Positions 1 through 55,430 of a stretch of 64,000 nucleotides of DNA are shown here, piece by piece. Numbering within the stretch: position 1 is the first letter of the stretch; every line of letters begins with the position of its first letter. Both the position numbers and the translations under genes were made by a program. This DNA comes from Naegleria gruberi (lineage: Eukaryota): assembly GCA_000004985.1 (NCBI GenBank), contig GG738875.1. One strand, 5' to 3'. The notes under the pieces are model-generated. The model ran no database searches, had not been told where the DNA came from, and worked only from the letters and a program-made list of their open reading frames with translations.

Positions 1-3000
1 AAGTTGATAATATTTATCAAATTTTCAACAATGAAAAATCTAATCCACCAAGAACAAAGAATATGCCACCAGTATCTGGAGCTATTTATTGGTCTCATTC
101 ACTCTTTGAAAGAATTAGAAAACCAATGATTTTGTTCAAGGAGGCTCCAGATATGTTGGATACAGATGAAGGAAAGAAGATTCAAAATAAGAGTTTTACA
201 GTAGCTAAAGAAATTCTAGAATTTGAAGAAACTAAATTTAAGGAATGGAAATCAACAGTGACGGAAGATACTATTAAATACTTGAAAGGCAATATTTTAA
301 TGAAAGATGGTAATAAGATTGTTGTGAACTTCCATGCTAAACTTTTATTATTAATTCAAGAAACCAGATATCTTGATAAACTAGGTAAAAAAGTCCCAGA
401 AATTGCTTTGAATGTAACTTTGCAAGAAGAAAAGTACCACAAGTACATTGAAAATCTCAGAGGAATGATAGAAAATTTCACTCAATCAAAGGATTCATTA
501 GATAAGGCTGAAGAAAAGGTTCTTGCTCCTTTGATTAATAGATTGAAGAAAATATTAGAACCTGGATTTTCTGTTCTGAATTGGAACTCATTAGGTATTG
601 ATGAGTTTATCAAAAGATGTAACACGGAAATCTCAGATTTTCAATCAATTGTGCAGAAAATGCAAAGAAACGCATCTGTAATCCGATCCTTAATCCAACA
701 ACTCAAGAGTCCTTTTGCTACAAAACTGGACTTGAATGGAGAAATGATCACTTTACCAGAATTGGTTGAAACTATCGAAAGAAATGTTCAACAAAAAAGT
801 GTCAGTCTTGCCAAGAAATACAAAACTATTGGTCAAACTTTATTGAAGATGGAAGGAGACCTCATCAATAGTAATGTTATAGAGAGTGAAAGTAAATCAG
901 CAACAGGAAGAGAAAAGCTTTTACAGGGCTATTATGCCTATTGGGAAAAGAGAATTTTTAAAGCTCTTGTAAAGAATGTATCCTCAAGTATTGATGAATT
1001 GATGGATTTCCTGTACTTGAGTAAAAAGAAGAAGAATATCCCAATTAAGAAGAATCCTCTTCTCAAAGTTAACGTTTCATTGTATCACAAAGCTATTGCA
1101 ACATCACCAGATTTGGATGATATTTCAGATATGTTGGATAAGATTGTTAATAGCCCTATCAATGCTACTAAACATTTCGTGAGATGGTACAGTGGTACCT
1201 GCCATGAAATTACAAACATTGAAGTCAAAACAGAGAGGGATGACCAAATTGATATTCCTTCGATTATTGCTAATCACTTCTCTTTCTTCAATGAAATTCT
1301 TCAAATTCCTTTAATTACCAAGAAAGTTTTACTTTTAAATAATGGTATCCAGAAAACTTTAACTAATGTACAAAGATTTGTAAATACCTACACCAAATAC
1401 CAAGAGTATTGGAAGACACCAAAAGAAATGGCTATGGAAAAGTTTGGTAGTAAAGACCCTTCATGGGATGCCTATTACAGAAAATTGGAAGACTATCATA
1501 GATTGTTAGAAGATATTAATTCTCATACAAAACCAATCAAGGATTTAGAATTTATTAGAATAGATTCAACATCATTTATAAAATCCTTCACAGATGAATT
1601 GAGAAAATGGATTGAAGCAATGTCCAAATTATTAAATAGCAATATTGAACCTAAAGCCAAGGAATTAAATGCTAAAATTGATAGCTTCAAGGAGGGGTTA
1701 ACAATTGAAATCAAGGAACTTGATGATTTGAGAAAGGTACTTTCAGTAATTGATGAAGGTAGATCTAGCTCTGCTGATATAGAACGAGAATATAGAGAAG
1801 TTGAGGATGTTTACCATACTATGATTTCTTATGGTGTTAAAATTCCAACTGAAGAAATGGAACTTGTTAATGGACTGAGATCAAAATGGGAAAATTTAAT
1901 GGTAGCCTCAAAGGAAATGGAAATTGAATTGATTCCACAAAAAGAAAGATTCACTTCTGAGACACAAAAGAGAGTTTCTCAATTCCAAATTGAAGTTACT
2001 AAATTGAAGGACGAATTTGATAAAGGTCCAGGTAATCCATCAGTACAATTGGAAGAAGGTCTCGAACAAATGGAGTCACTTAAAGGTGCTATGGAAGAAA
2101 AGAAAAAGACCAGAGATTACCTTGTTCAATCAGAAAAATTATTCGACCTACCAATTACTCCTTATCCAGATTTTGTGCAACTCGAAAAGAAGATGGCCAA
2201 GTTTGGTAAGATTTTCGAAATATTTGGAGATTGGCAAAAGAAGCTTACCAAATGGTCTAGAACTCTTTGGGTTGAAGCTCCTATTGAAGAAATGACCAAA
2301 GAAACCTCACGATTCTCCCAAATGTTGATTAGTAAGAAGGAATTCCCTCAAGAGCTTCAAGAATTACCTGCTCACAAGACATTTAAGAGTAAGGTTAAAC
2401 ATTTCCAAAAGACCATTGAATTACTTTCATGTCTTAAGAGTGAAGCATTGAGAGAGAGACATTGGGAGCAATTGATGAAAGCTACAGGTAAAAACTTTGA
2501 TATCAATCCATCAACATTCACATTGAAAAATTTGATTGATATGAACTTGTATGAACACGAAAATAGTATTAATGAAATCACAGAATCTGCCAATAAGGAA
2601 CTTGATGTTGAAAATACAATTAAGAAGGTTGCTGAGGTTTGGAGAAATAGAAAATTCGATCTCAAGAAGCACATTAGAGATGGTGAAGATAGAGGTTTTG
2701 TTTTGACCGGTATTGATAGTGTAAAAGAACAATTGGAAGAAGATACTGCCAACTTGGCTGCCATTTCTGGTACTCAACATTCTGTACCTTTTGCTGCTGA
2801 ACTTAGCAAATGGGAAGGATATCTTTCTAAGATTGATGAAGTTACTACTCTTTGGGTAGATGTTCAAAGAACCTGGATGTACCTTGAAATCATTTTTATT
2901 GGTTCAGAAGATATTAAGGATCAATTACCAGAACAAGCAAAAGCCTTTAAGAAGATCGATACTGATTGGGCTAAAACTATGGCTGAAACAGCCAAGAATA

Positions 3001-6000: not shown

Positions 6001-9000
6001 CTTTACAACAAAAGAAGATGATAGTCTTTATTGATGATATGAACATGCCAAACTTTGACAAATATGGTACCCAACAACCTATTGCTTTATTGAAATTGAT
6101 GTTAGAAAAGCAAGGTTTCTATGAACGTAAAACTACCAATCTGGCCTTTATGAGATTACTTGATATGCAATACGTTGCTGCCATGCAACCAACATTTGGC
6201 AGTAATGCTATGGATCCAAGAATTGTTTCTAAATTCAATGTGCTTAATATTTCTTTCCCATCTGATGATTCTATTGACCATATTTATAGTTCCATTTTAA
6301 GTCATCATCTTACAAACTTCTCTCAAGAAATTCAAGATGTTAGTTCAAAGATAACCAAGTCAACTATTAGATTGTACAAGTATCTTGTAAATTCACTTCC
6401 TCCAACTCCTTCCAAATTCCACTACCTCTTCAACTTGAGAGATTTGAGCAGAATTTATGAAGGTTTATGTTTATCTACTATTGATAAGCAAAACGAGGCT
6501 GCAAAGTTTATTAGATTGTGGAGAAATGAACTTTTGAGAGTTTTCCATGATAGACTTATCTCAGTAGCAGATAAAACTCTCACCATCAATGCTATTGAAG
6601 ATGAAATCAAGACTGTTTTCCATAGTCACTCAGAATATGTTCTCAGAAATCCAATTGTTTATGGCGATTTCCTTGACTTCCAAGATCCAAATAATCCAAG
6701 ATTATACGAAGATTTAACGGATTATGATAGAGTTAAGCCTGTTATTGAAGATGCCATCAATATTTACAATGAAAGACCAGGTATTAAGAAATTAGATCTT
6801 GTAATGTTCGAAGATGCATTGGAGCATTTAACTAGACTTTTGAGAATTGTTAGAATGGATAGAGGTAATGCTCTCCTTATTGGTGTTGGTGGTTCTGGTA
6901 AACAAAGTTTAACTAGACTAGCATCTTTTGTTGCTGGATATGAGTTATACGAAATCAAACTCTCAAGAGGTTATAATGAAAATCAATTCCGTGAAGATTT
7001 GAAGAATTTGTACAGAAAACTTGGTGTAGAAGATAAGAAAGTATTGTTCTTGTTTACTGATGCCCATGTTGTAGAAGAAGGATTTTTGGAATTCATCAAT
7101 AATATGCTTTCATCAGGTGTTGTTCCTGCATTATTCGAAGATAATGAAAAGGATGAACTCTACAACGCAGTATCTAAGGAAATTAAGACGACTAACATTG
7201 TTCCAAATAAGGAAAATATGTGGAACTTCTTTATTAACAAATGTAGAAATAATTTACACATTGTCCTTTCAATGACACCTACAGGTAGTACCCTCAGAGT
7301 TAGATGCAGAAACTTCCCAAGTTTAGTTAGTAGTACTACTATTGACTGGTTCACTTCTTGGCCTTCCCAAGCTCTCAAAGAAGTTGCTAACCAATTCTTG
7401 TCAGATGATTCAGTTCCGCAAGAATTGTTGCAATCTATCAATACTCATATGATTTTCGTACATCAAAGTGTTGAGAAATATAGTAATAGATTTGCTCTCG
7501 AATACAGACGTTATAACTATGTTACACCAAAGAATTATCTTGATTACATCAATACTTACAAGAGATTACTCAATGAAAATAGAAGTAAGATTGATGAAAT
7601 GATCAAGAGACTTGATGGTGGTTTGAAGAAACTAAGAGAAGGTAAAGATGAAGTTGAAGAAAGAAAGAAGGAATTATCTGAAGCCTCTGAAATTCTCCAA
7701 ACAAAGTCTGTTGAAAACCAACAGCTTCTTCAAGTTATTAGTGAAAGACTTACAGAAGCCTCAGAACAAAGTAAACTCCAACAAGAAAGAGAAGAAGAAA
7801 TTAAGAAGGAACTTGAAAACATTCAAAAGCAAAAGATTGAAGAAGAAGAGAAGTTAGCTGTAGCTGAACCCGCTGTTAGAGCTGCAGAAGAATCTTTGAA
7901 GAAACTTGACAGAAATGCTATTACAGAAATGAAGTCATTTGCCAGTCCTTCCCAAGTCATTCAAGATGTTGGTGCTTGTATTTATATCCTCTTAGAAGAT
8001 GATTCTCCATCACAAATTACTTGGTCTAATGTTAAGTCTATCATGACTGAAGCCTTCTTTAACAGATTGGTTACCTATGAAAAGTCAAGACTTACATCTA
8101 ATAAGATTAACAAAATTGAAACTATTTACAGAAAGAACGGTGATGCCATGAAACCTGAAGAAATTGCTAAAGTTTCAAGTACATTGGCTGAAATTATTAA
8201 GTGGGTTAACTCAATGAGAGAATACTTTAATGCTATGAGGGTCGTCAAACCAATCAGAAAGAAGAAGGAAGAAGCCGAAAGAAAGCTTGCCTCATTCACA
8301 GAACAATTAGCAACCATCAAATCAAAGCTCATTAAGTTAAAAGAGGATATTGCTGAATACAAGGTAAAATATCAAAGAGGTCAAGAAGAAGAAAAGAGTT
8401 TGATTGAAAAGAAATTAAGTATGGAAGCTAAACTTACAGCTGCCAACAAACTTATTGAAGGTTTAGGCTCGGAAAGAGAAAGATGGGCTCAACAAATTCA
8501 AGAACTTGCAGAAAAGAAGAATAGATTAATTGGTGATTGTTTAATTTGTTCAGCATTTTTGAGTTACACTGGTGCCTTCACTGTTGACTTTAGAAAGGAA
8601 ATGATTCAAGAATGGATCAATGAAATGAAGGAAACAGAAATTCCACTTACATTCCCATTCGATATTGAAGATATTCTTACTGACGATGTTCAAAAGAGTC
8701 AATGGGCATATGAAGGATTACCTTCTGATAAGATTTCTACTCAAAATGGTGTTCTCACAACCCACGCTTCAAGATTCCCTCTTTGTATTGACCCTCAACT
8801 TCAAGCTGTTAAATGGATCAAGAACAAGGAAAAGAACATTAGAGTTTGCTCTTTTAGTGATTCTGACTTTATGAGAAAGATTGAAAATGCTATGAAATAT
8901 GGAGAAACTGTACTTTTTGAAAATGTTGATGAAGTTATTGATCCAATGATAGATCCTGTTTTGGATATGGAAATTAAGGGAAAGAAGAGAATTGTTAGAA

Positions 9001-21033: not shown

Positions 21034-21303
21034 TTTTTTTCAGTGCGCCTAGTTTTCTAGAAGGATTGAAATATGCTGTTTGTTTCAAATATTCGTTGAA
21101 GATTATAAAGAATAATAAATGGTAATTACAATAAATGGTGAAGAGGTTGCGGCAACGTGCTACGAAAGATATTTTGTTGGTGTGTTGTTTTTTTGTTATC
21201 GGAGGATTTTTGATTTACAGTAGTAATTGGTTTGTGTTGCTTAATAAAAACGTGGGGAAAAAAAGACTGAATAATTGGCTTTCTTGCCTGTATAAGAGTA
21301 AAA

Positions 21304-21421
21304 GACTACAGCACCACAGGTTCCCAAGTTGTCTCCAACCTCAGTACTGATGTGGCTCTACGATGCTTAACTTCTCAAATCGGACGGGATGAGGTGCATT
21401 CATCGTGATATGGCCGTAGCC
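21304..21421 (-). rRNA. 5S rRNA gene, copy 1.
   Basis: 118 nt. The reverse complement reads GGCTACGGCCATATCACGATGAATGCACCTCATCCCGTCCGATTTGAGAAGTTAAGCATCGTAGAGCCACATCAGTACTGAGGTTGGAGACAACTTGGGAACCTGTGGTGCTGTAGTC, followed by TTTT. Helix I pairs 5' GGCTAC with 3' GTAGTC. Confidence 0.9.
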
Positions 21422-21741
21422 ATTCATTATATGAAAATTATGATATTGAACGAGTACAGAAATTATGTTTATATTTTATTTCAGTCATCGTTGGATGAAA
21501 TATTTGAATGATACGAAAGGTGAAAGTGTTAATGAAAATCCACCTTAATCCTCATTCAAGTTTCATTCAAATCCAACATTGTAAACTGGCAAACTAGCTT
21601 CCACTTTTCCAATCACCTTCCAATAACACTCCATTTTTAATTTGAGCCACTAAATGATTTAAATTGCCTCCGGAGCTCAAGAATACTCCACACAAAAAAA
21701 CAGCAACAATATTCAACATTCTTCATACAAAAGAATACAAA

Positions 21742-42992: not shown

Positions 42993-43066
42993 TACAGCGA
43001 GCGGGGCTTGAACCCGCGACCTTAAGCGTGTTAGGCTTACGATCTAACCAACTGATCTATCGCTGC
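42993..43066 (-). tRNA. tRNA-Val (anticodon AAC).
   Basis: The reverse complement is GCAGCGATAGATCAGTTGGTTAGATCGTAAGCCTAACACGCTTAAGGTCGCGGGTTCAAGCCCCGCTCGCTGTA. It has a 7-bp acceptor stem, a GTTCAAG T-loop, the anticodon loop CTAACAC, discriminator A, and a T-run two nt after the 3' end. Confidence 0.9.
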
Positions 43067-43289
43067 TTACATTCAACATGAAATTTTTCTTAATATCTAT
43101 TTACCAAAATTTACACAGCTGCTTTTCCTCGAGCCGTCTTACTGTTTCCATTTAGTGCTCAAGCCATTCACATTAATCCACCCGAGCTTTTTTTCTATGA
43201 GCATGTACCAATTCAGTTTCTCCTTTTCACGTTTGATTTAAAACGCACGCAAAGTCCAAAACATGAATTTCAAAACTCAATCATAAAAA

Positions 43290-45151: not shown

Positions 45152-45262
45152 CCTCGTCTGGATCTTGACATTGAATTATTGGCTTCATTGTCCATACAGA
45201 ATCAAAGACTGATAGTAGAGATTGTCGCCATATTCGTGGCAGGCTTCTAGTCTAAATTATAA
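45152..45262 (+). repeat. Left copy of an inverted repeat pair of about 100 bp. Its partner is at 48972..49066.
   Basis: The core GATTGTCGCCATATTCGTGGCAGGCTTC is nearly identical to the reverse complement of 48983..49010 (GAAGCCTGCCAGGAATATGGCGACAATC). Homology extends both ways: CATTGTCCATACAGAATCAAAGACTG versus CACTGTTCATACAGTCAAAGACTG. Confidence 0.7.
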
Positions 45263-45488
45263 TGTTTCAATACAGTGAATAAACAACTTATTCCCTTCTT
45301 AATAAAGTTTCAACCTGTAATGAAAGAAATCTTCATCAATTTACTACCTTTATTACTGAGAAGAAAGTTTTCAGCAAAATTCTTCAATATTCACTCTTGG
45401 GAGATTTCAGAGAAATTATTGAATGATGGTTGTACCCACAGGTCCACGTTGTTTTCTTATTCAATATTAAGATTTTAAGATAGGAAAT

Positions 45489-45606
45489 GACTACGGCCAT
45501 ATCACGATCCATGCACCTCATCCCGTCCGATTTGAGAAGTTAAGCATCGTCGAGCCACATCAGTACTGAGGTTGGAGACAACTTGGGAACCTGTGGTGCT
45601 GTAGTC
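45489..45606 (+). rRNA. 5S rRNA gene, copy 2.
   Basis: GACTACGGCCATATCACGATCCATGCACC...GGTGCTGTAGTC followed by TTTT. Confidence 0.9.
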
Positions 45607-46290
45607 TTTTACTCTTTTTGTACAGTATCAAGATTAAGTGTTAACTTTGTCAGTTAAATTCCATTAACAATTAATATGTGTGTGATGAATTCACCAATTT
45701 ATAAACAAATAAATGTTGATTGTTAAAAATTGTCGTGTGTTAAAAGGCATGGGTGGAGTTGCGCCACCAACACTTCAGAGAAATGAGCTGATCGTGATGT
45801 TAGAATTACACTACATGCCTCAAATGCAGTGTAATTTTACAAGCATTCTAACCTTCAGATTGTTTTAAATGTTCACTTCATTATGGTATAATTCTTTTTT
45901 TAAAAACAGAATTCAGCCAACTCTGAAATGGAAGCTTCAATTAATCGATGCTTTAATTCTCGTTAGTTATGTAACATATGATATTTCATCGTAAATGAAC
46001 TGTTTAACACTGTTAATATGGATCATTTTAGCACAATGTGGACATTATACTAAGGCCAACTAAGGAATCATTTTATTACGAATGAAATTGGGTGAAAGGG
46101 ATCTGTGAGAAGAATCTTATTCGAAAGTGATTACTTGGTTTGTATCAATAGAAAATTGCAAATATTTATACAACCAATGACAACAAGAATATTAATTACT
46201 TTTCCAGTTGATGATCATAAAAAGGAACAACAAACGTCACTCATCAATTAATAAAATAAATCAAAAAAATTAAAAAAATATTAAAAAAAA

Positions 46291-48095: not shown

Positions 48096-48616
48096 GATGT
48101 TTTACCAGCATCCAAACCTAATGAACATGGATTGACCCATTCCCACAAGTTTGGTCAATTCGATCCAATTAGAACCTTCAACACCAATATTATTATTGCT
48201 AATATCAAGAATGGTCAACTTCTTCCCAATCCAAGTGTTAATTCATTCAATTATTTTATGAATACTGATCCTTTCTCTACAATATCATTATGACCAATAC
48301 CAAGTTTAATTAACTGTTTCAGTTTGCTAATATATTTAGCTCCTTCACCACTAACGCGATTGTAATACATCAAGTTTGGTTAATTGTTTCATTTCACTAA
48401 TGGATTTAGCTCCTCCATCTCCAATGTTATTAATGCTAATATCAAGATTAGCTCTTTCATTCCCCCAATGAATTTAGCACCTCTTTCTCCAAAATTATTT
48501 TGATTAATAGAAAGATTAGTTAATTGATTCATTTCGCTAATATCCATTTCTGTTAATCCATTCATCAAATTAAATATTTTACAATTAAATATTTTAGAAA
48601 CATTTCTAAGTTCCAC
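48096..48616 (-). pseudogene. Decayed ribonuclease-inhibitor-type leucine-rich-repeat gene fragment.
   Basis: RI-LRR units (LTxLxIxxNxIGxxGAKxI) are readable in three different frames. They are ...MNQLTNLSINQNNFGERGAKFIGGMKEL..., then ...YYNRVSGEGAKYISKLKQLIKLGIGHND..., then ...KLTILDISNNNIGVEGSNWIELTKL.... At least two 1-nt frame breaks and one stop separate them, and there is no room for introns. Confidence 0.5.
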
Positions 48617-48971
48617 TTTTAAAGTTCAACATTTTGCAAAAATCGACCTTCCATTACTTTCGAATCCTTTTCCAATTTTTAATTAAAGAAAGTTTCATTT
48701 CCGAAAAATTGACATTCTGTCACTGTGTTGAAACCAATGCACAATTCATCACCAGAAATTTAAAATCATGATTGTGATGAGATAGAATTTCATCAGGAAA
48801 GAGAATGTGTTTGCTCATTTTTTTGGGTTTTGTAAATTTCAAAGTTGCGCCAACAATAGGCTCTAAGAATGTGGGTTTGATAAGCACACGATTTAAAAGA
48901 ATGAGGATCAGGATTGGATCTTACTAAATCAATGCAAAAGGAATATATGTTGAAAACGATTTCAATTGTTA

Positions 48972-49066
48972 ATTTGGACGGGAAGCCTGCCAGGAATATG
49001 GCGACAATCCCGCTACAGTCTTTGACTGTATGAACAGTGAATTCAAGAGTTCTTGGACGAATCTTG
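48972..49066 (-). repeat. Right copy (inverted) of the repeat at 45152..45262.
   Basis: See the feature at 45152..45262. Confidence 0.7.
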
Positions 49067-49655: not shown

Positions 49656-51089
49656 TTACTCATAGCATCTGTCATAATATTCATTGATTGATGAATGTGA
49701 AATACAAGCCACAAATTTTTCTCTACTCATATCATAATACTCCTTAATGGTATCAAAATTGGCGTCAGGATTACACCTCACAATGTTTGCATAGAGAACC
49801 AATTGATGAATCAATGAGTCCTTTTTCTCAATAAATTGACGATTAACAAAATTGTGAACTCTTCGTTCAGACCAGTTATGAATTTTCTCATAATCTTGGT
49901 TCCTTCTCGTATTAATAATTTCCACATACATCAATTCAGACAATATTTCATAATTTACAAGGTCATCCAAAGAGTTACATCCTTGAATGGAAATTCTCAA
50001 AAGTTTGGGAAATCTCTTCCTTGTTATTGCAGATAGAATATTCCTCTCCAATTTTCCAGTATCTATCTGTAAATAATAATTATTCTCTGTTGAAGGAAAT
50101 CTGATTGTTAAATCACGAACATTTGAAAATTCTTCGTGTCCTTCCAGGAAATTGTCATACTCCTCTCCAGTTTCATAAGATGTTACGAAAGAAAAGCATA
50201 GAAACTGAGCATGTTTCGGAATTGTAAACTGTTGATAATTCTTGTTGAAATTGATTGAAATGGCCACATAAATTGGCTGCAATGTTTCAAATATGATAGA
50301 GTCTTCTTCAAAATTATACTCCAAATCAATTAATAAACCAAGTGAGCTTGAATCCATAAAATTATCGGTAAATAAACCTTTCGAAAATAGATAACATCTT
50401 TCTAAAGTTTCATAACAGCTTTCCCCACTATGCCTTTCACTATCGAAATATGAAACCATATCAAGAGATAATATCAATGCCTTATGTAGAAACAAATCAT
50501 ACGGATCCAGTTGAGTAATTTGTTTGATTTTCTCAAATTTTGACTCTGAAACCATTAATTTCTGAACTCTTTCTTCGAATAATTTGTTCACATCCTCATC
50601 AATAAACTCATTTTCTATTTCATTCAAATCCACATCCTCAAAGGAATAACCAATACATTTCGACTTATCAATAATATCCTTATACTCTCGATTGGAATTC
50701 ATCTCAACTGCCTCTATCAATTTCTGCATTTTGACAAAAGGAATTGATTCGTAAACAGAAATGTCACCTCTTGCCAACGAAAATCCCTCAAAAGATTGAT
50801 ATCGTTTCCAATAAACAACCATCTCCAAAATATTCGAAACCTCCTTCCAGAAATCACCCATTTCAACCAGAAACAAATAGGTAGCCTTTCTTGAAATTGT
50901 TTTACACCATTTATGCACAGCTCTCACATTTTCCACATCCAAACCATTCAAAATTCTTGGATAAATCAAATTCTTAAATTTCATAATTTCATTATTATTT
51001 TGCAATAAAGAAAGATGAATCGGACCAAGCCAATATTCAAAAATACAATAACGCCAAATATCCAGTGGAAGGGAGAGAAGATGAGTCAT
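49656..51089 (-). CDS. Hypothetical protein with an N-terminal F-box-like motif.
   Basis: The N-terminus is LSLPLDIWRYCIFEYW. The 477-aa ORF is clean. The rest is unrecognised. Confidence 0.5.
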   Translation of the reverse strand: MTHLLSLPLDIWRYCIFEYWLGPIHLSLLQNNNEIMKFKNLIYPRILNGLDVENVRAVHKWCKTISRKATYLFLVEMGDFWKEVSNILEMVVYWKRYQSFEGFSLARGDISVYESIPFVKMQKLIEAVEMNSNREYKDIIDKSKCIGYSFEDVDLNEIENEFIDEDVNKLFEERVQKLMVSESKFEKIKQITQLDPYDLFLHKALILSLDMVSYFDSERHSGESCYETLERCYLFSKGLFTDNFMDSSSLGLLIDLEYNFEEDSIIFETLQPIYVAISINFNKNYQQFTIPKHAQFLCFSFVTSYETGEEYDNFLEGHEEFSNVRDLTIRFPSTENNYYLQIDTGKLERNILSAITRKRFPKLLRISIQGCNSLDDLVNYEILSELMYVEIINTRRNQDYEKIHNWSERRVHNFVNRQFIEKKDSLIHQLVLYANIVRCNPDANFDTIKEYYDMSREKFVACISHSSINEYYDRCYE

Positions 51090-53678: not shown

Positions 53679-54083
53679 TATTTTTTTTGTTTGATGTTTC
53701 TTCATACAATGGCATTCCGTAAAAATAGAATCTATTTTTATTTTATATTTCCAAGACAAAGGTGTACACCTTGTTTGATTTACAGAATAATCCTTATTGA
53801 TGTTAATTGTTTCATTTCACTGATGAATTTGAGTTGTTCTAAAGAGTCAAACAAATGTTCAGAAAATTCAACATTAACAATACTATTCATAAATTGACTT
53901 TTCATTCCGCGTCAGACATTTCTCTTCCATATTTCCTCCGAATTCATTAATTGATGATTTTCAAAATCATGTCTGTTTCGTTTACTCATTTTTTAAATTG
54001 GAATACTCAACATTAACCTCTGTGAAAGAAGTTGATATCTCTTTATTACCAATCATATTCAATTGTCTGACATCTTCAACTAT

Positions 54084-54108
54084 GACCATATCACGATGAA
54101 CGCATCTC
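54084..54108 (+). pseudogene. Truncated 5S rRNA fragment (positions about 8-31) 70 nt upstream of 5S copy 3.
   Basis: GACCATATCACGATGAACGCATCTC versus the 5S sequence GGCCATATCACGATGAATGCACCTC. It is followed by ATCAGTA (5S positions about 75-81) and then by the conserved 5S upstream flank. Confidence 0.55.
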
Positions 54109-54177
54109 AAAGTATCAGTATTCCCCATACGTTCACATTGTTTTCTTATTCAAAATTAAGATTTTAACAGAGTGAAT

Positions 54178-54295
54178 GACTACGGCCATATCACGATGAA
54201 TGCACCTCATCCCGTCCGATTTGAGAAGTTAAGCATCGTCGAGCCACATCAGTACTGAGGTTGGAGACAACTTGGGAACCTGTGGTGCTGTAGTC
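54178..54295 (+). rRNA. 5S rRNA gene, copy 3.
   Basis: Identical to copy 2 except CGATGAATGC. Followed by TTTTT. Confidence 0.9.
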
Positions 54296-54545
54296 TTTTT
54301 ATTTTCACTTAAGGTTCCTTTAATGGAAGACCTTCTTATTTTACATAATAATAGATCACCCCAAAATTCTGTAAAAGTGAAAGTGTTTAAATGTGCCTTT
54401 TATGGCCAGTGGAACCAACATGCAAAAATTTCGTGCGTACAATCTCATCAGTTTGAGCGCTTTGAATTTCCTTTATCTTTCCCGCTCAAAACCATTTTTA
54501 CTTTTTTCAAAATCAAAACAAAAAAGCAAAACTCAAACAATAACA

Positions 54546-55430
54546 ATGAAATTCGAAAAGAGACCATCAAAAGAAAGAGGACATTATGATGCAGGTTGGC
54601 TCGATACCTATCACACATTTTCCTTCTCCACTTATAGAGATTCAAAATTTAATCAATTCGGTCCATTGAGAGTATTGAATGAGGATTGTGTGGAGCCATC
54701 GAGTGGATTCCCAATGCATCCTCATCAGAATTATGAAATATTTTCGTATGTCTTGTCAGGAAATTTGACTCATTCAGATTCTATGGGAAATACAGAAATT
54801 TGTAAGAAAGGTTCAGTTCAGTTTACTTCTGCTGGAAGTGGTATTTATCATAGTGAGTTCAATAGGGACAAGAATGAATATGTTAAATTCTTACAAATTT
54901 GGGTGAAGCCAAGAAGCCTTGATGCGAAACCAAATTATCAAAAGATGAGTTTCTCACCAGACCAAAAACTGAATCAATTGTGTTTAATGATTGCTCCAAA
55001 GGAAAGTGCCAAATTGAAGGAAGAAGAATTAATTGGAATTGATCAGGATTTCTATGTACTTTCTAGCTTATTAGAATCTGGAAAGAAGGTCAATCATACT
55101 TTATATTCTGGTCGTCAGATTTATGTTCATGTTCCAATTATGAGTAGAACTGGATCAGTATCCAATTCTAAATCAAATGGTTTGTTATCTTCTTTACTTC
55201 GTAAGACAACCAACCCTTTTATTACCAATTATTTAAAAACTAAATTTTCAAAAACAAAAGAACAAGTTTCCATCAAACTTTCCAATAATAGTAATGGAAA
55301 TGGTGAACTTATTACATTGAATGAAGGTGATGGCTGTTCCATTCAATCAGATTCACTGTCCGAAGAGGAATTAATCATTGAGGGTGTTAATTCCATGACT
55401 GAATTTGTCGTGATGGATATGAAAAAGTAA
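54546..55430 (+). CDS. Pirin (cupin superfamily).
   Basis: The N-terminal cupin has its metal-binding histidines in context: GFPMHPHQNYEIFSYVLSG and ...GSGIYHSEFN. The first ATG is in a CAATAACAATG context at 54546. Confidence 0.8.
   Translation: MKFEKRPSKERGHYDAGWLDTYHTFSFSTYRDSKFNQFGPLRVLNEDCVEPSSGFPMHPHQNYEIFSYVLSGNLTHSDSMGNTEICKKGSVQFTSAGSGIYHSEFNRDKNEYVKFLQIWVKPRSLDAKPNYQKMSFSPDQKLNQLCLMIAPKESAKLKEEELIGIDQDFYVLSSLLESGKKVNHTLYSGRQIYVHVPIMSRTGSVSNSKSNGLLSSLLRKTTNPFITNYLKTKFSKTKEQVSIKLSNNSNGNGELITLNEGDGCSIQSDSLSEEELIIEGVNSMTEFVVMDMKK

Follow-up and report, generated by a model that had tools for sequence, protein, structure and literature searches.

Scattered 5S rRNA genes with conserved upstream boxes are a textbook pattern, known from S. 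pombe, plants and Neurospora. The 5S genes of S. pombe are dispersed, and Neurospora contains about 100 or more scattered 5S copies, the flanks of which are unrelated but for a short conserved upstream box. Truncated 5S pseudogene fragments are also found in Neurospora, and duplication and loss take place there under purifying selection, much as seems to be the case in Naegleria. Dispersed 5S genes have reportedly been described in Neurospora crassa, where a TATA-like box is said to lie near -29, and the 5S genes of filamentous fungi reportedly evolve by birth-and-death, leaving truncated pseudogenes behind. TATA-dependent Pol III genes are likewise reported from S. pombe and plants. In both, a TATA or TATA-like box at -30/-24 is an established feature of Pol III-transcribed tRNA and 5S genes (PMC7279448). 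Yet another arrangement is found in Yarrowia lipolytica, where 5S genes are scattered and 48 of 108 copies lie 4-7 nt behind a tRNA gene, with which they are co-transcribed (Acker et al. 2008, PMC2566860).

For Naegleria gruberi, a BLASTn search of the genome by Feng et al. 2012 (PLoS One 7:e36878, PMC3369914) gave 279 putative 5S copies, which are set out in their Table S1. In that table the copies are distributed over numerous scaffolds, where they frequently cluster loosely at intervals of a few kb. The same article reports an internal control region (ICR), an upstream TATA box, no detectable TFIIIA and no linkage to rDNA; its +1 is set one nucleotide farther upstream than ours, at a T. Its Table 1 carries the entry 'tandem: Y', which is at odds with the dispersal seen in its own Table S1 and in the DNA described here. 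Among the Table S1 entries are scaffold_31:149302-149418, 173492-173608 and 182181-182297. Their spacing equals that of the three genes discussed below, so all three had already been catalogued; by gene spacing, the DNA that we analysed corresponds to approximately scaffold_31:128,000-192,000. Thus, it has been known since 2012 that N. gruberi has these genes, that they belong to a dispersed family and that a TATA box occurs upstream. In the parts of the article on which we draw, however, the TATA box is presented on one gene, with no delimitation of elements at -29..-13 and -5..-1 across copies, no comparison with tRNA genes and no duplication units.

The window, i.e., the whole 64,000-nt stretch of contig GG738875.1 that was analysed, contains three 5S rRNA genes recognised by Rfam RF00001. 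These are copy 1 (21303..21421, minus strand, 106.5 bits; the G2, A63 variant), copy 2 (45489..45607, plus strand, 97.8 bits; CC at 21-22) and copy 3 (54178..54296, plus strand, 106.2 bits). All three span model positions 1-120, exceed the gathering score of 38 bits and are 119 nt long in Rfam coordinates, so the original prediction of three full-length 5S genes at these sites holds, with 98-107 bits for each. The copies are separated by 24.2 kb (24,190 nt) and 8.7 kb (8,689 nt), and copy 1 is oriented opposite to copies 2 and 3. Between them lie protein-coding ORFs, including those for an MFS transporter, a GNAT acetyltransferase and a WASP-like protein, as well as one lineage-specific and one pirin-like ORF. 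Five long ORFs of the window agree at every residue with N. gruberi NEG-M proteins, e.g., EFC43118 (deoxyhypusine synthase) and EFC43128 (WASP-like), all of them assigned to a single contig of 396,166 bp. The G+C content of the window is 34% overall and 31-36% along its length. The window is thus part of the nuclear genome of this heterolobosean amoeboflagellate. No SSU, LSU or 5.8S rRNA was matched by Rfam anywhere in the window, the only other RNA family found being tRNA-Val(AAC); the large rRNA genes of N. gruberi reside on an extrachromosomal plasmid. A tandem 5S rDNA array is ruled out by the 24.2 and 8.7 kb gaps, the inverted copy and the intervening ORFs; together with the lack of an SSU or LSU match, these features confirm that the copies are neither tandem nor rDNA-linked, as had been proposed.

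Four further Naegleria-type 5S loci could be set beside those of the window. A 5S-core pattern scan of JGI metagenomes led to one contig (L001), and the same scan of GTDB genomes and IMG/VR gave no match. Three more contigs (L003, L004 and L005) came from a protein database searched with the six-frame 5S translation, a search aimed at spurious ORF calls over 5S genes. L003 is an independent N. gruberi-like locus, in which the 5S gene is placed between a tRNA-Met gene and two tRNA-Glu genes; its contig and another one, which encodes a protein with 99% identity to one from the window, both come from one ENA metagenome. In L001, the neighbouring gene encodes an ABHD11-like protein with only 52-58% identity to its nearest named relatives, from Willaertia magna and N. 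lovaniensis, so this contig belongs to a different vahlkampfiid species. Since the L004 gene abuts the contig end and the L005 gene is cut at its 5' end, neither has an upstream flank, and upstream comparisons cover five flanks (copies 1-3, L001 and L003).

Despite their dispersal, the window 5S genes are mutually 97-98% identical, and copies 2 and 3 differ at 2 of 119 positions. The substitutions named in the original prediction were read correctly: copy 1 has G instead of A at position 2 and A instead of C at position 63, while copy 2 has CC instead of GA at positions 21-22. According to Rfam cmscan, the G21C change of copy 2 breaks one helix II pair at a cost of about 8 bits; the cmscan alignments of copies 1 and 3 have no non-canonical pairs in helices I-V. 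The view that G2 is private to copy 1 could not be maintained, as the 5S genes of L001, L003 and L004 carry G2 too. It follows that A2 is a state common to copies 2 and 3, and, judging from the genes compared, it is the apparent derived state.

The upstream flanks were delimited by comparing each gene, together with its 1-kb flanks, with the window by blastn. Between copies 2 and 3, similarity extends from -54 on the 5' side to +3 on the 3' side, and 45435-45610 and 54124-54299 are 93.75% identical over 176 nt. The limits are -29 and +9 for copies 1 and 2, and -29 and +3 for copies 1 and 3. In the 5' flank common to copies 2 and 3 (45435..45488 and 54124..54177, both -54..-1 on the plus strand), 45 of 54 positions are identical (binomial P ~7e-16 at an empirical background match rate of 0.28-0.30). 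The similarity reported earlier for this pair is therefore real, but it extends over 54 nt rather than at least 60 nt and ends abruptly: positions -55..-100 are at background (11/46), as they are for every pair. Likewise, copy 1 does have the related flank ascribed to it, with 21/29 identical positions against either of the other copies (P ~3e-6), but the relationship is confined to -29..-1 (21422..21450, minus strand), where a promoter-like block is found.

Within the flank, a core block lies at -29..-13. It reads TTCAATATCATAATTTT in copy 1 (21434-21450, minus strand), TTCAATATTAAGATTTT in copy 2 (45460-45476, plus strand, with ATTAAG at 45466-45471) and TTCAAAATTAAGATTTT in copy 3 (54149-54165, plus strand); copy 1 agrees with copies 2 and 3 at 13-14 of the 17 positions. 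The consensus of this block is TTCAAWATTAAGATTTT, and it is followed at -5..-1 by a second box, TGAAT/NRAT, which has the form TGAAT in copy 1 (21422-21426, minus strand) and in copy 3 (54173-54177, plus strand). The upstream sequence of L003, GGTTTCTTATTCAGTATTAAGATTTTGATATTATCAAT followed by G, matches copies 2 and 3 at 15-16/17 positions in -29..-13 and at 8/9 in -38..-30, and then falls to background. In L001, where the gene is preceded by TTGAAATTATAGAATTAACATAAGTAGAT and begins with G, 8-11/17 positions agree with the core block and the frame TT.AA..T..AGA.TT.AA is kept. Only about half of the block is thus matched in L001. Among copies 1, 2, 3 and L003, the identity in -29..-13 amounts to 13-16/17, with P(at least 13/17) ~1e-4 per pair, to be read with the fact that 5S copies share ancestry, so that similarities among the five flanks are not independent observations. 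Some of the similarity might also stem from gene conversion tracts that extend into the flank. Overall, independent copies conserve an AT-rich, TATA-like box that differs from the canonical TATAAA and whose distance from the start is constant. Identity in the flank is 72-83%, compared with 97-98% in the gene, and such lower conservation is what one would expect of a degenerate protein-binding site.

A scan of the window with the 19-nt block consensus, allowing up to 3 mismatches, returned three sites. Two of them are exact and precede copies 2 and 3; the third, at 55233-55251 on the minus strand, has 3 mismatches and is unrelated, so the scan revealed no solo upstream blocks in the window. In the remaining 1-kb flanks, blastn within the window found nothing else in common between the 5S copies. 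There is thus no larger segmental duplication around them, a possibility that the original prediction had itself raised as an objection. A 29-nt blast match between 53802-53830 and 48379-48407 lies, as judged by eye, within leucine-rich-repeat-like tandem repeats, and we rejected it as part of a larger 5S-bearing duplication. With a permissive E-value, the Rfam search near copies 2 and 3 brought up nothing but sub-threshold snoRNA-like noise.

Boxes that seem related to those of the 5S genes also precede tRNA genes. The tRNA-Val(AAC) gene of the window (42993..43066, minus strand; Rfam 66.9 bits, also found by ARAGORN) has ATTAAG at -28..-23 (43089-43094) and TGAAT at -9..-5 (43071-43075), both on the minus strand, within the upstream sequence GATATTAAGAAAAATTTCATGTTGAATGTAA followed by G. 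The two tRNA-Glu genes of L003 are preceded by CCATTAAGGGTACATTTTCGAGTTGAATATA followed by T (at the ARAGORN start; the Rfam gene start is one base later) and by CTATAAAATGAGAATATTTTCATTGTGAATGAGA followed by T, respectively. In total, four tRNA genes were compared, and chance was estimated from random anchors in the window. ATTAAG, found at -23 in 3/5 5S genes, occurs at -28/-29 in 2/4 tRNA genes (P ~1e-3), and TGAAT, found at -5 in 2/5 5S genes, occurs at -9/-8 in 3/4 tRNA genes (P ~5e-5). A third tRNA gene, besides the two with ATTAAG, has TATAAAA at about -34. The spacing from ATTAAG to TGAAT is 18 nt in 5S genes versus 19-21 nt in tRNA genes, and the tRNA boxes lie 4-5 nt farther from the mature 5' end than those of 5S genes. 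Such a shift fits pre-tRNAs with a short leader.

On the 3' side, the T-run is the only flank feature common to all copies. In the window it is represented by TTTT at 21300..21303 (copy 1, minus strand), TTTT at 45607..45610 (copy 2, plus strand) and TTTTT at 54296..54300 (copy 3, plus strand), all read from the sequence and of the Pol III terminator type. At least three T follow the annotated gene end in 7/7 related copies, and at least four if the last T of the gene is counted. L004 and L005 supply 3' flanks alone, and in these the T-run is again the sole likeness. Copies 1 and 2 additionally have ACTCTT in common after the T-run. From the 3' similarity of about 30 nt that had been claimed for these two copies, the anchored stretch TTTACTCTT (the T-run plus 6 nt) stands, but the remainder does not: local alignment of the two 3' flanks beyond the T-run does not rise above shuffles (p=0.25).

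Copies 2 and 3 would be best read as one old local duplication of 176 bp of DNA, followed by selection on the gene and the promoter. The two instances of the duplicated unit, 45435-45610 and 54124-54299, lie 8.7 kb apart in the same orientation, and both carry A2; their flanks have diverged by about 17%, their genes at 2/119 positions. Near copy 3 there is also a truncated 5S pseudogene fragment (54079..54109, plus strand), which corresponds to 5S positions 2-32 with 27/31 identical. Its local alignment score is 42, against a shuffle maximum of 26, and its blastn E is 2e-4. The fragment lies 99 nt upstream of copy 3 and 15 nt beyond the 5' limit of the 176-bp unit, and the sequence upstream of it contains no significant promoter relic. 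This 31-nt fragment is the sole trace of local repetition; a degenerate second 5S gene as a tandem relic upstream of copies 1 and 2 was looked for, and none was found. Taken together, the duplication and the relic seem to fit birth-and-death turnover rather than transposition.

Keeping in mind these observations, we suppose, with a probability of roughly 75%, that the 5S genes of the window are dispersed, individually transcribed units, that selection maintains a Pol III core promoter outside each gene, and that copies 2 and 3 go back to an old local duplication. An upstream Pol III promoter element was one of two alternatives offered by the original prediction, and several observations argue for it: L003 retains both the block and the -5..-1 box and L001 retains them in part, identity elsewhere in the flank stays at background, and seemingly related, similarly spaced boxes stand before tRNA genes (four compared). 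Each 5S copy would then be an autonomous Pol III transcription unit of three parts, namely a gene-external core promoter of about 30 nt, consisting of the AT-rich, TATA-like TTCAAWATTAAGATTTT and of TGAAT/NRAT abutting the start site; the 119-nt gene with its usual internal control region; and a run of at least 4 T as a terminator. The TATA-like box at -29..-13 would probably position TBP/TFIIIB at a fixed distance from +1, and TGAAT/NRAT would mark the start region. In each copy the promoter would be maintained by purifying selection, and the remaining flank would decay. The genes sit singly in short intergenic regions; new copies would arise via small DNA-level duplications and some copies would decay, as the 31-nt fragment suggests, which would produce a birth-and-death pattern.

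Could the same flanks have arisen with no promoter function at all? Under concerted evolution only, conversion or unequal recombination tracts would spill some 30-55 nt into the 5' flank. Dispersed genes that are 97-98% identical do imply some homogenisation or strong selection, and the similarity drops with distance from the gene and has limits that differ between pairs (-54 versus -29), as conversion tracts would. However, conversion predicts a tract as similar as the gene, and the flank is clearly below it, at 72-83% versus 97-98%. Spill into the 3' flank would be expected too, yet only the T-run is common there. Moreover, part of the upstream block survives in a different species (L001), and the related, similarly spaced boxes found before tRNA genes are not convertible by 5S genes. 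We thus regard concerted evolution as an improbable sole cause of the flank similarity. As for chance similarity of AT-rich intergenic DNA, the window has 34% G+C, and short AT-rich matches are common in it (many blastn matches have E>0.1). However, the anchored identities of 45/54 and 21/29 have P of 7e-16 and 3e-6 at a match rate of 0.28, and the 19-mer consensus with up to 3 mismatches is rare, the window holding three instances, of which both exact ones precede 5S genes. Chance is already refuted by these statistics.

The other alternative offered by the original prediction was a mobile cassette of about 200-250 bp, comprising the upstream block, the 5S gene and a short tail, which would transpose or retropose together with its flank. 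The approximately 279 scattered genomic copies (PMC3369914, Table S1) would suit such an element, as would the discrete 176-bp unit with abrupt ends in copies 2 and 3 and the truncated 5S fragment adjoining copy 3. Besides, the 5S gene located beside the ABHD11-like gene in the L001/L010 species is absent from the corresponding loci of N. lovaniensis, Willaertia magna and the L006/L007 organism, which contain neither a 5S nor a tRNA gene. However, the genes around the ABHD11-like locus are not conserved between the species compared; the neighbourhoods are rearranged, so the presence or absence of 5S there is uninformative about insertion and constitutes weak evidence. What the spreading cassette also lacks is constant termini, the limits being -54/+3 for copies 2 and 3, -29/+9 for copies 1 and 2, -29/+3 for copies 1 and 3, and -38 for L003 versus copies 2 and 3. 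The search for target-site duplications, suggested along with the cassette, yielded direct repeats of at least 7 nt in 2/7 copies, inside the conserved block, and 43% of random anchors have one as well; such repeats are thus no commoner at 5S genes than at random anchors. Neither an A-rich tail nor terminal repeats (LTR/TIR) were found around the 5S units in the flanks compared, and the window has no solo blocks. Finally, retroposition could not carry the upstream block, because the Pol III transcript starts at +1. With differing pair limits, no A-tail and no solo blocks, the cassette finds no support in our data, and we hold it to be very unlikely.

If we return to the reading of selection-kept promoters and local duplication, the Naegleria genes appear to resemble those of S. 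pombe and plants in that, besides the internal promoters, an AT-rich gene-external box would stand at a constant distance upstream of 5S genes and tRNA genes alike. Unlike the TATAAA of S. pombe and plants, the Naegleria box is centred on ATTAAG and, at -25..-17 in 5S, is situated a little nearer the gene; a second putative box, TGAAT, appears to be conserved at the start site. With respect to Neurospora, Naegleria belongs to a different eukaryotic supergroup and has a different box sequence. Like those of Yarrowia, the Naegleria 5S genes are scattered outside the rDNA and are sometimes near a tRNA gene, as in L003, where 101 nt separate the 5S gene from a tRNA-Met gene upstream of it. Unlike in Yarrowia, the nearest tRNA gene of the window, tRNA-Val, is 2.4 kb from copy 2. 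The tRNA-Met gene of L003 has its own TTTTTT terminator, and the 5S gene that follows it has its own upstream block. A dicistron of the Yarrowia type, with the 5S gene 4-17 nt behind a terminator-less tRNA gene, was therefore rejected for both the distant tRNA-Val and the terminated tRNA-Met.

It is tempting to go one step further and to suppose that 5S and tRNA genes share a gene-external tripartite promoter (an ATTAAG-type box, ATTTT and, at the start site, TGAAT), and that in the case of 5S genes this promoter, more than the TFIIIA-bound internal region, is the main determinant of transcription, because TFIIIA was reported as undetectable (PMC3369914). The external promoter might then count for more than it does in animals or budding yeast. 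We consider this extended scenario doubtful. Our comparisons show the sequence anatomy and its conservation; protein binding, the dependence of transcription on the block and the respective shares of the internal and external promoters are inferred. If the scenario were true, a free-living discoban would express its 5S genes in a way that does not depend on TFIIIA.

Beyond annotation, our results are of little import, since the three genes, their scattered family and a TATA box upstream had all been published before. Nevertheless, the consensus TTCAAWATTAAGATTTT at -29..-13, together with TGAAT at the start, represents a concrete candidate for a Naegleria Pol III upstream promoter, one that tRNA genes seem to share in outline. 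Such a consensus could help to design Pol III cassettes for Naegleria, e.g., guide-RNA drivers, and the candidate promoter would bear on how 5S rRNA is transcribed in this organism if TFIIIA is truly absent.

The published catalogue of N. gruberi 5S genes (Feng et al. 2012, PMC3369914) is divided on their arrangement: its summary Table 1 gives them as tandem, while the coordinates in its Table S1 place them as single copies across many scaffolds, the closest grouping being a loose one with copies a few kb apart. The 5S genes in the window are scattered single copies, in agreement with Table S1 and contrary to Table 1.

Close to 5S copy 3 (54178-54296, plus strand) lies a truncated 5S pseudogene fragment at 54079-54109 on the same strand, which corresponds to 5S positions 2-32 (27/31 identical). 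The fragment starts 99 nt upstream of copy 3 and sits 15 nt outside the limit of the 176-bp unit duplicated between copies 2 and 3. A search upstream of it found no promoter relic, and the rest of the 5S gene is absent downstream. Approximately 200 nt upstream of copy 3, at 53910-54004, both strands gave C/D-box snoRNA-like matches that were sub-threshold and not significant (DdR1, E=1.2; SNORD111, E=2.3; snoR25, E=9.3), and TGATGA and CTGA boxes are present in the same region.

A further 5S gene was located in a contig (L005) from a heterolobosean-like metagenome organism, at 6297-6411 on the minus strand. Compared with the N. gruberi 5S, it has matching substitutions in the two strands of a single helix (CCACA...TGTGG to CTGCA...TGCAG), a case of natural covariation that supports the fold.

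Sequence comparison also revealed a conserved element of ~50-75 nt with the core GACGGGAAGCCTGCCAGGAATATGGCGAC..TCCCGCTACAGTCTTTGAC, found in the window at 48972-49045 (plus strand), in inverted orientation at 45180-45256 (minus strand), and between tRNA genes at ~1086-1135 (minus strand) of an N. gruberi-like metagenome contig (L003). The two window elements are 82% identical over 87 nt (E 3e-15) and have in common a 24-mer that occurs only at those two sites (expected 0). All three are directed away from a gene start, at a distance of 120-230 nt; none had a match in Rfam, and RNAalifold folded the element into a hairpin of 13 pairs, one of them compensatory. The element may represent a gene for a small RNA, an element associated with a promoter, or a short exon. 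The tRNA/5S cluster of L003 also contains a direct repeat of ~40 nt, CCGGTCAAATTGATTTTGTTGGCTAAGAATCAAATTCGAG, in two copies ~85 nt apart (~1030-1070 and ~945-985, minus-strand view).

As for the neighbouring coding sequence, leucine-rich-repeat-like tandem coding repeats (...TTAATTGTTTCATTTCACTAAT...), identified by eye at 48300-48560 (minus strand) and 53802-53830, account for the short BLAST matches between the surroundings of 5S copies 2 and 3; an F-box-like start, MSKHILFPDEIL, lies near 48825 on the minus strand. An ORF of 477 aa at 49656-51089 (minus strand) contains no Pfam domains. In a search of 5.8 billion proteins its homologues were restricted to N. gruberi, with seven paralogues on other scaffolds (39-70% identity), and a copy with 99% identity is present in an ENA metagenome. 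The ORF belongs to an expanded lineage-specific family.
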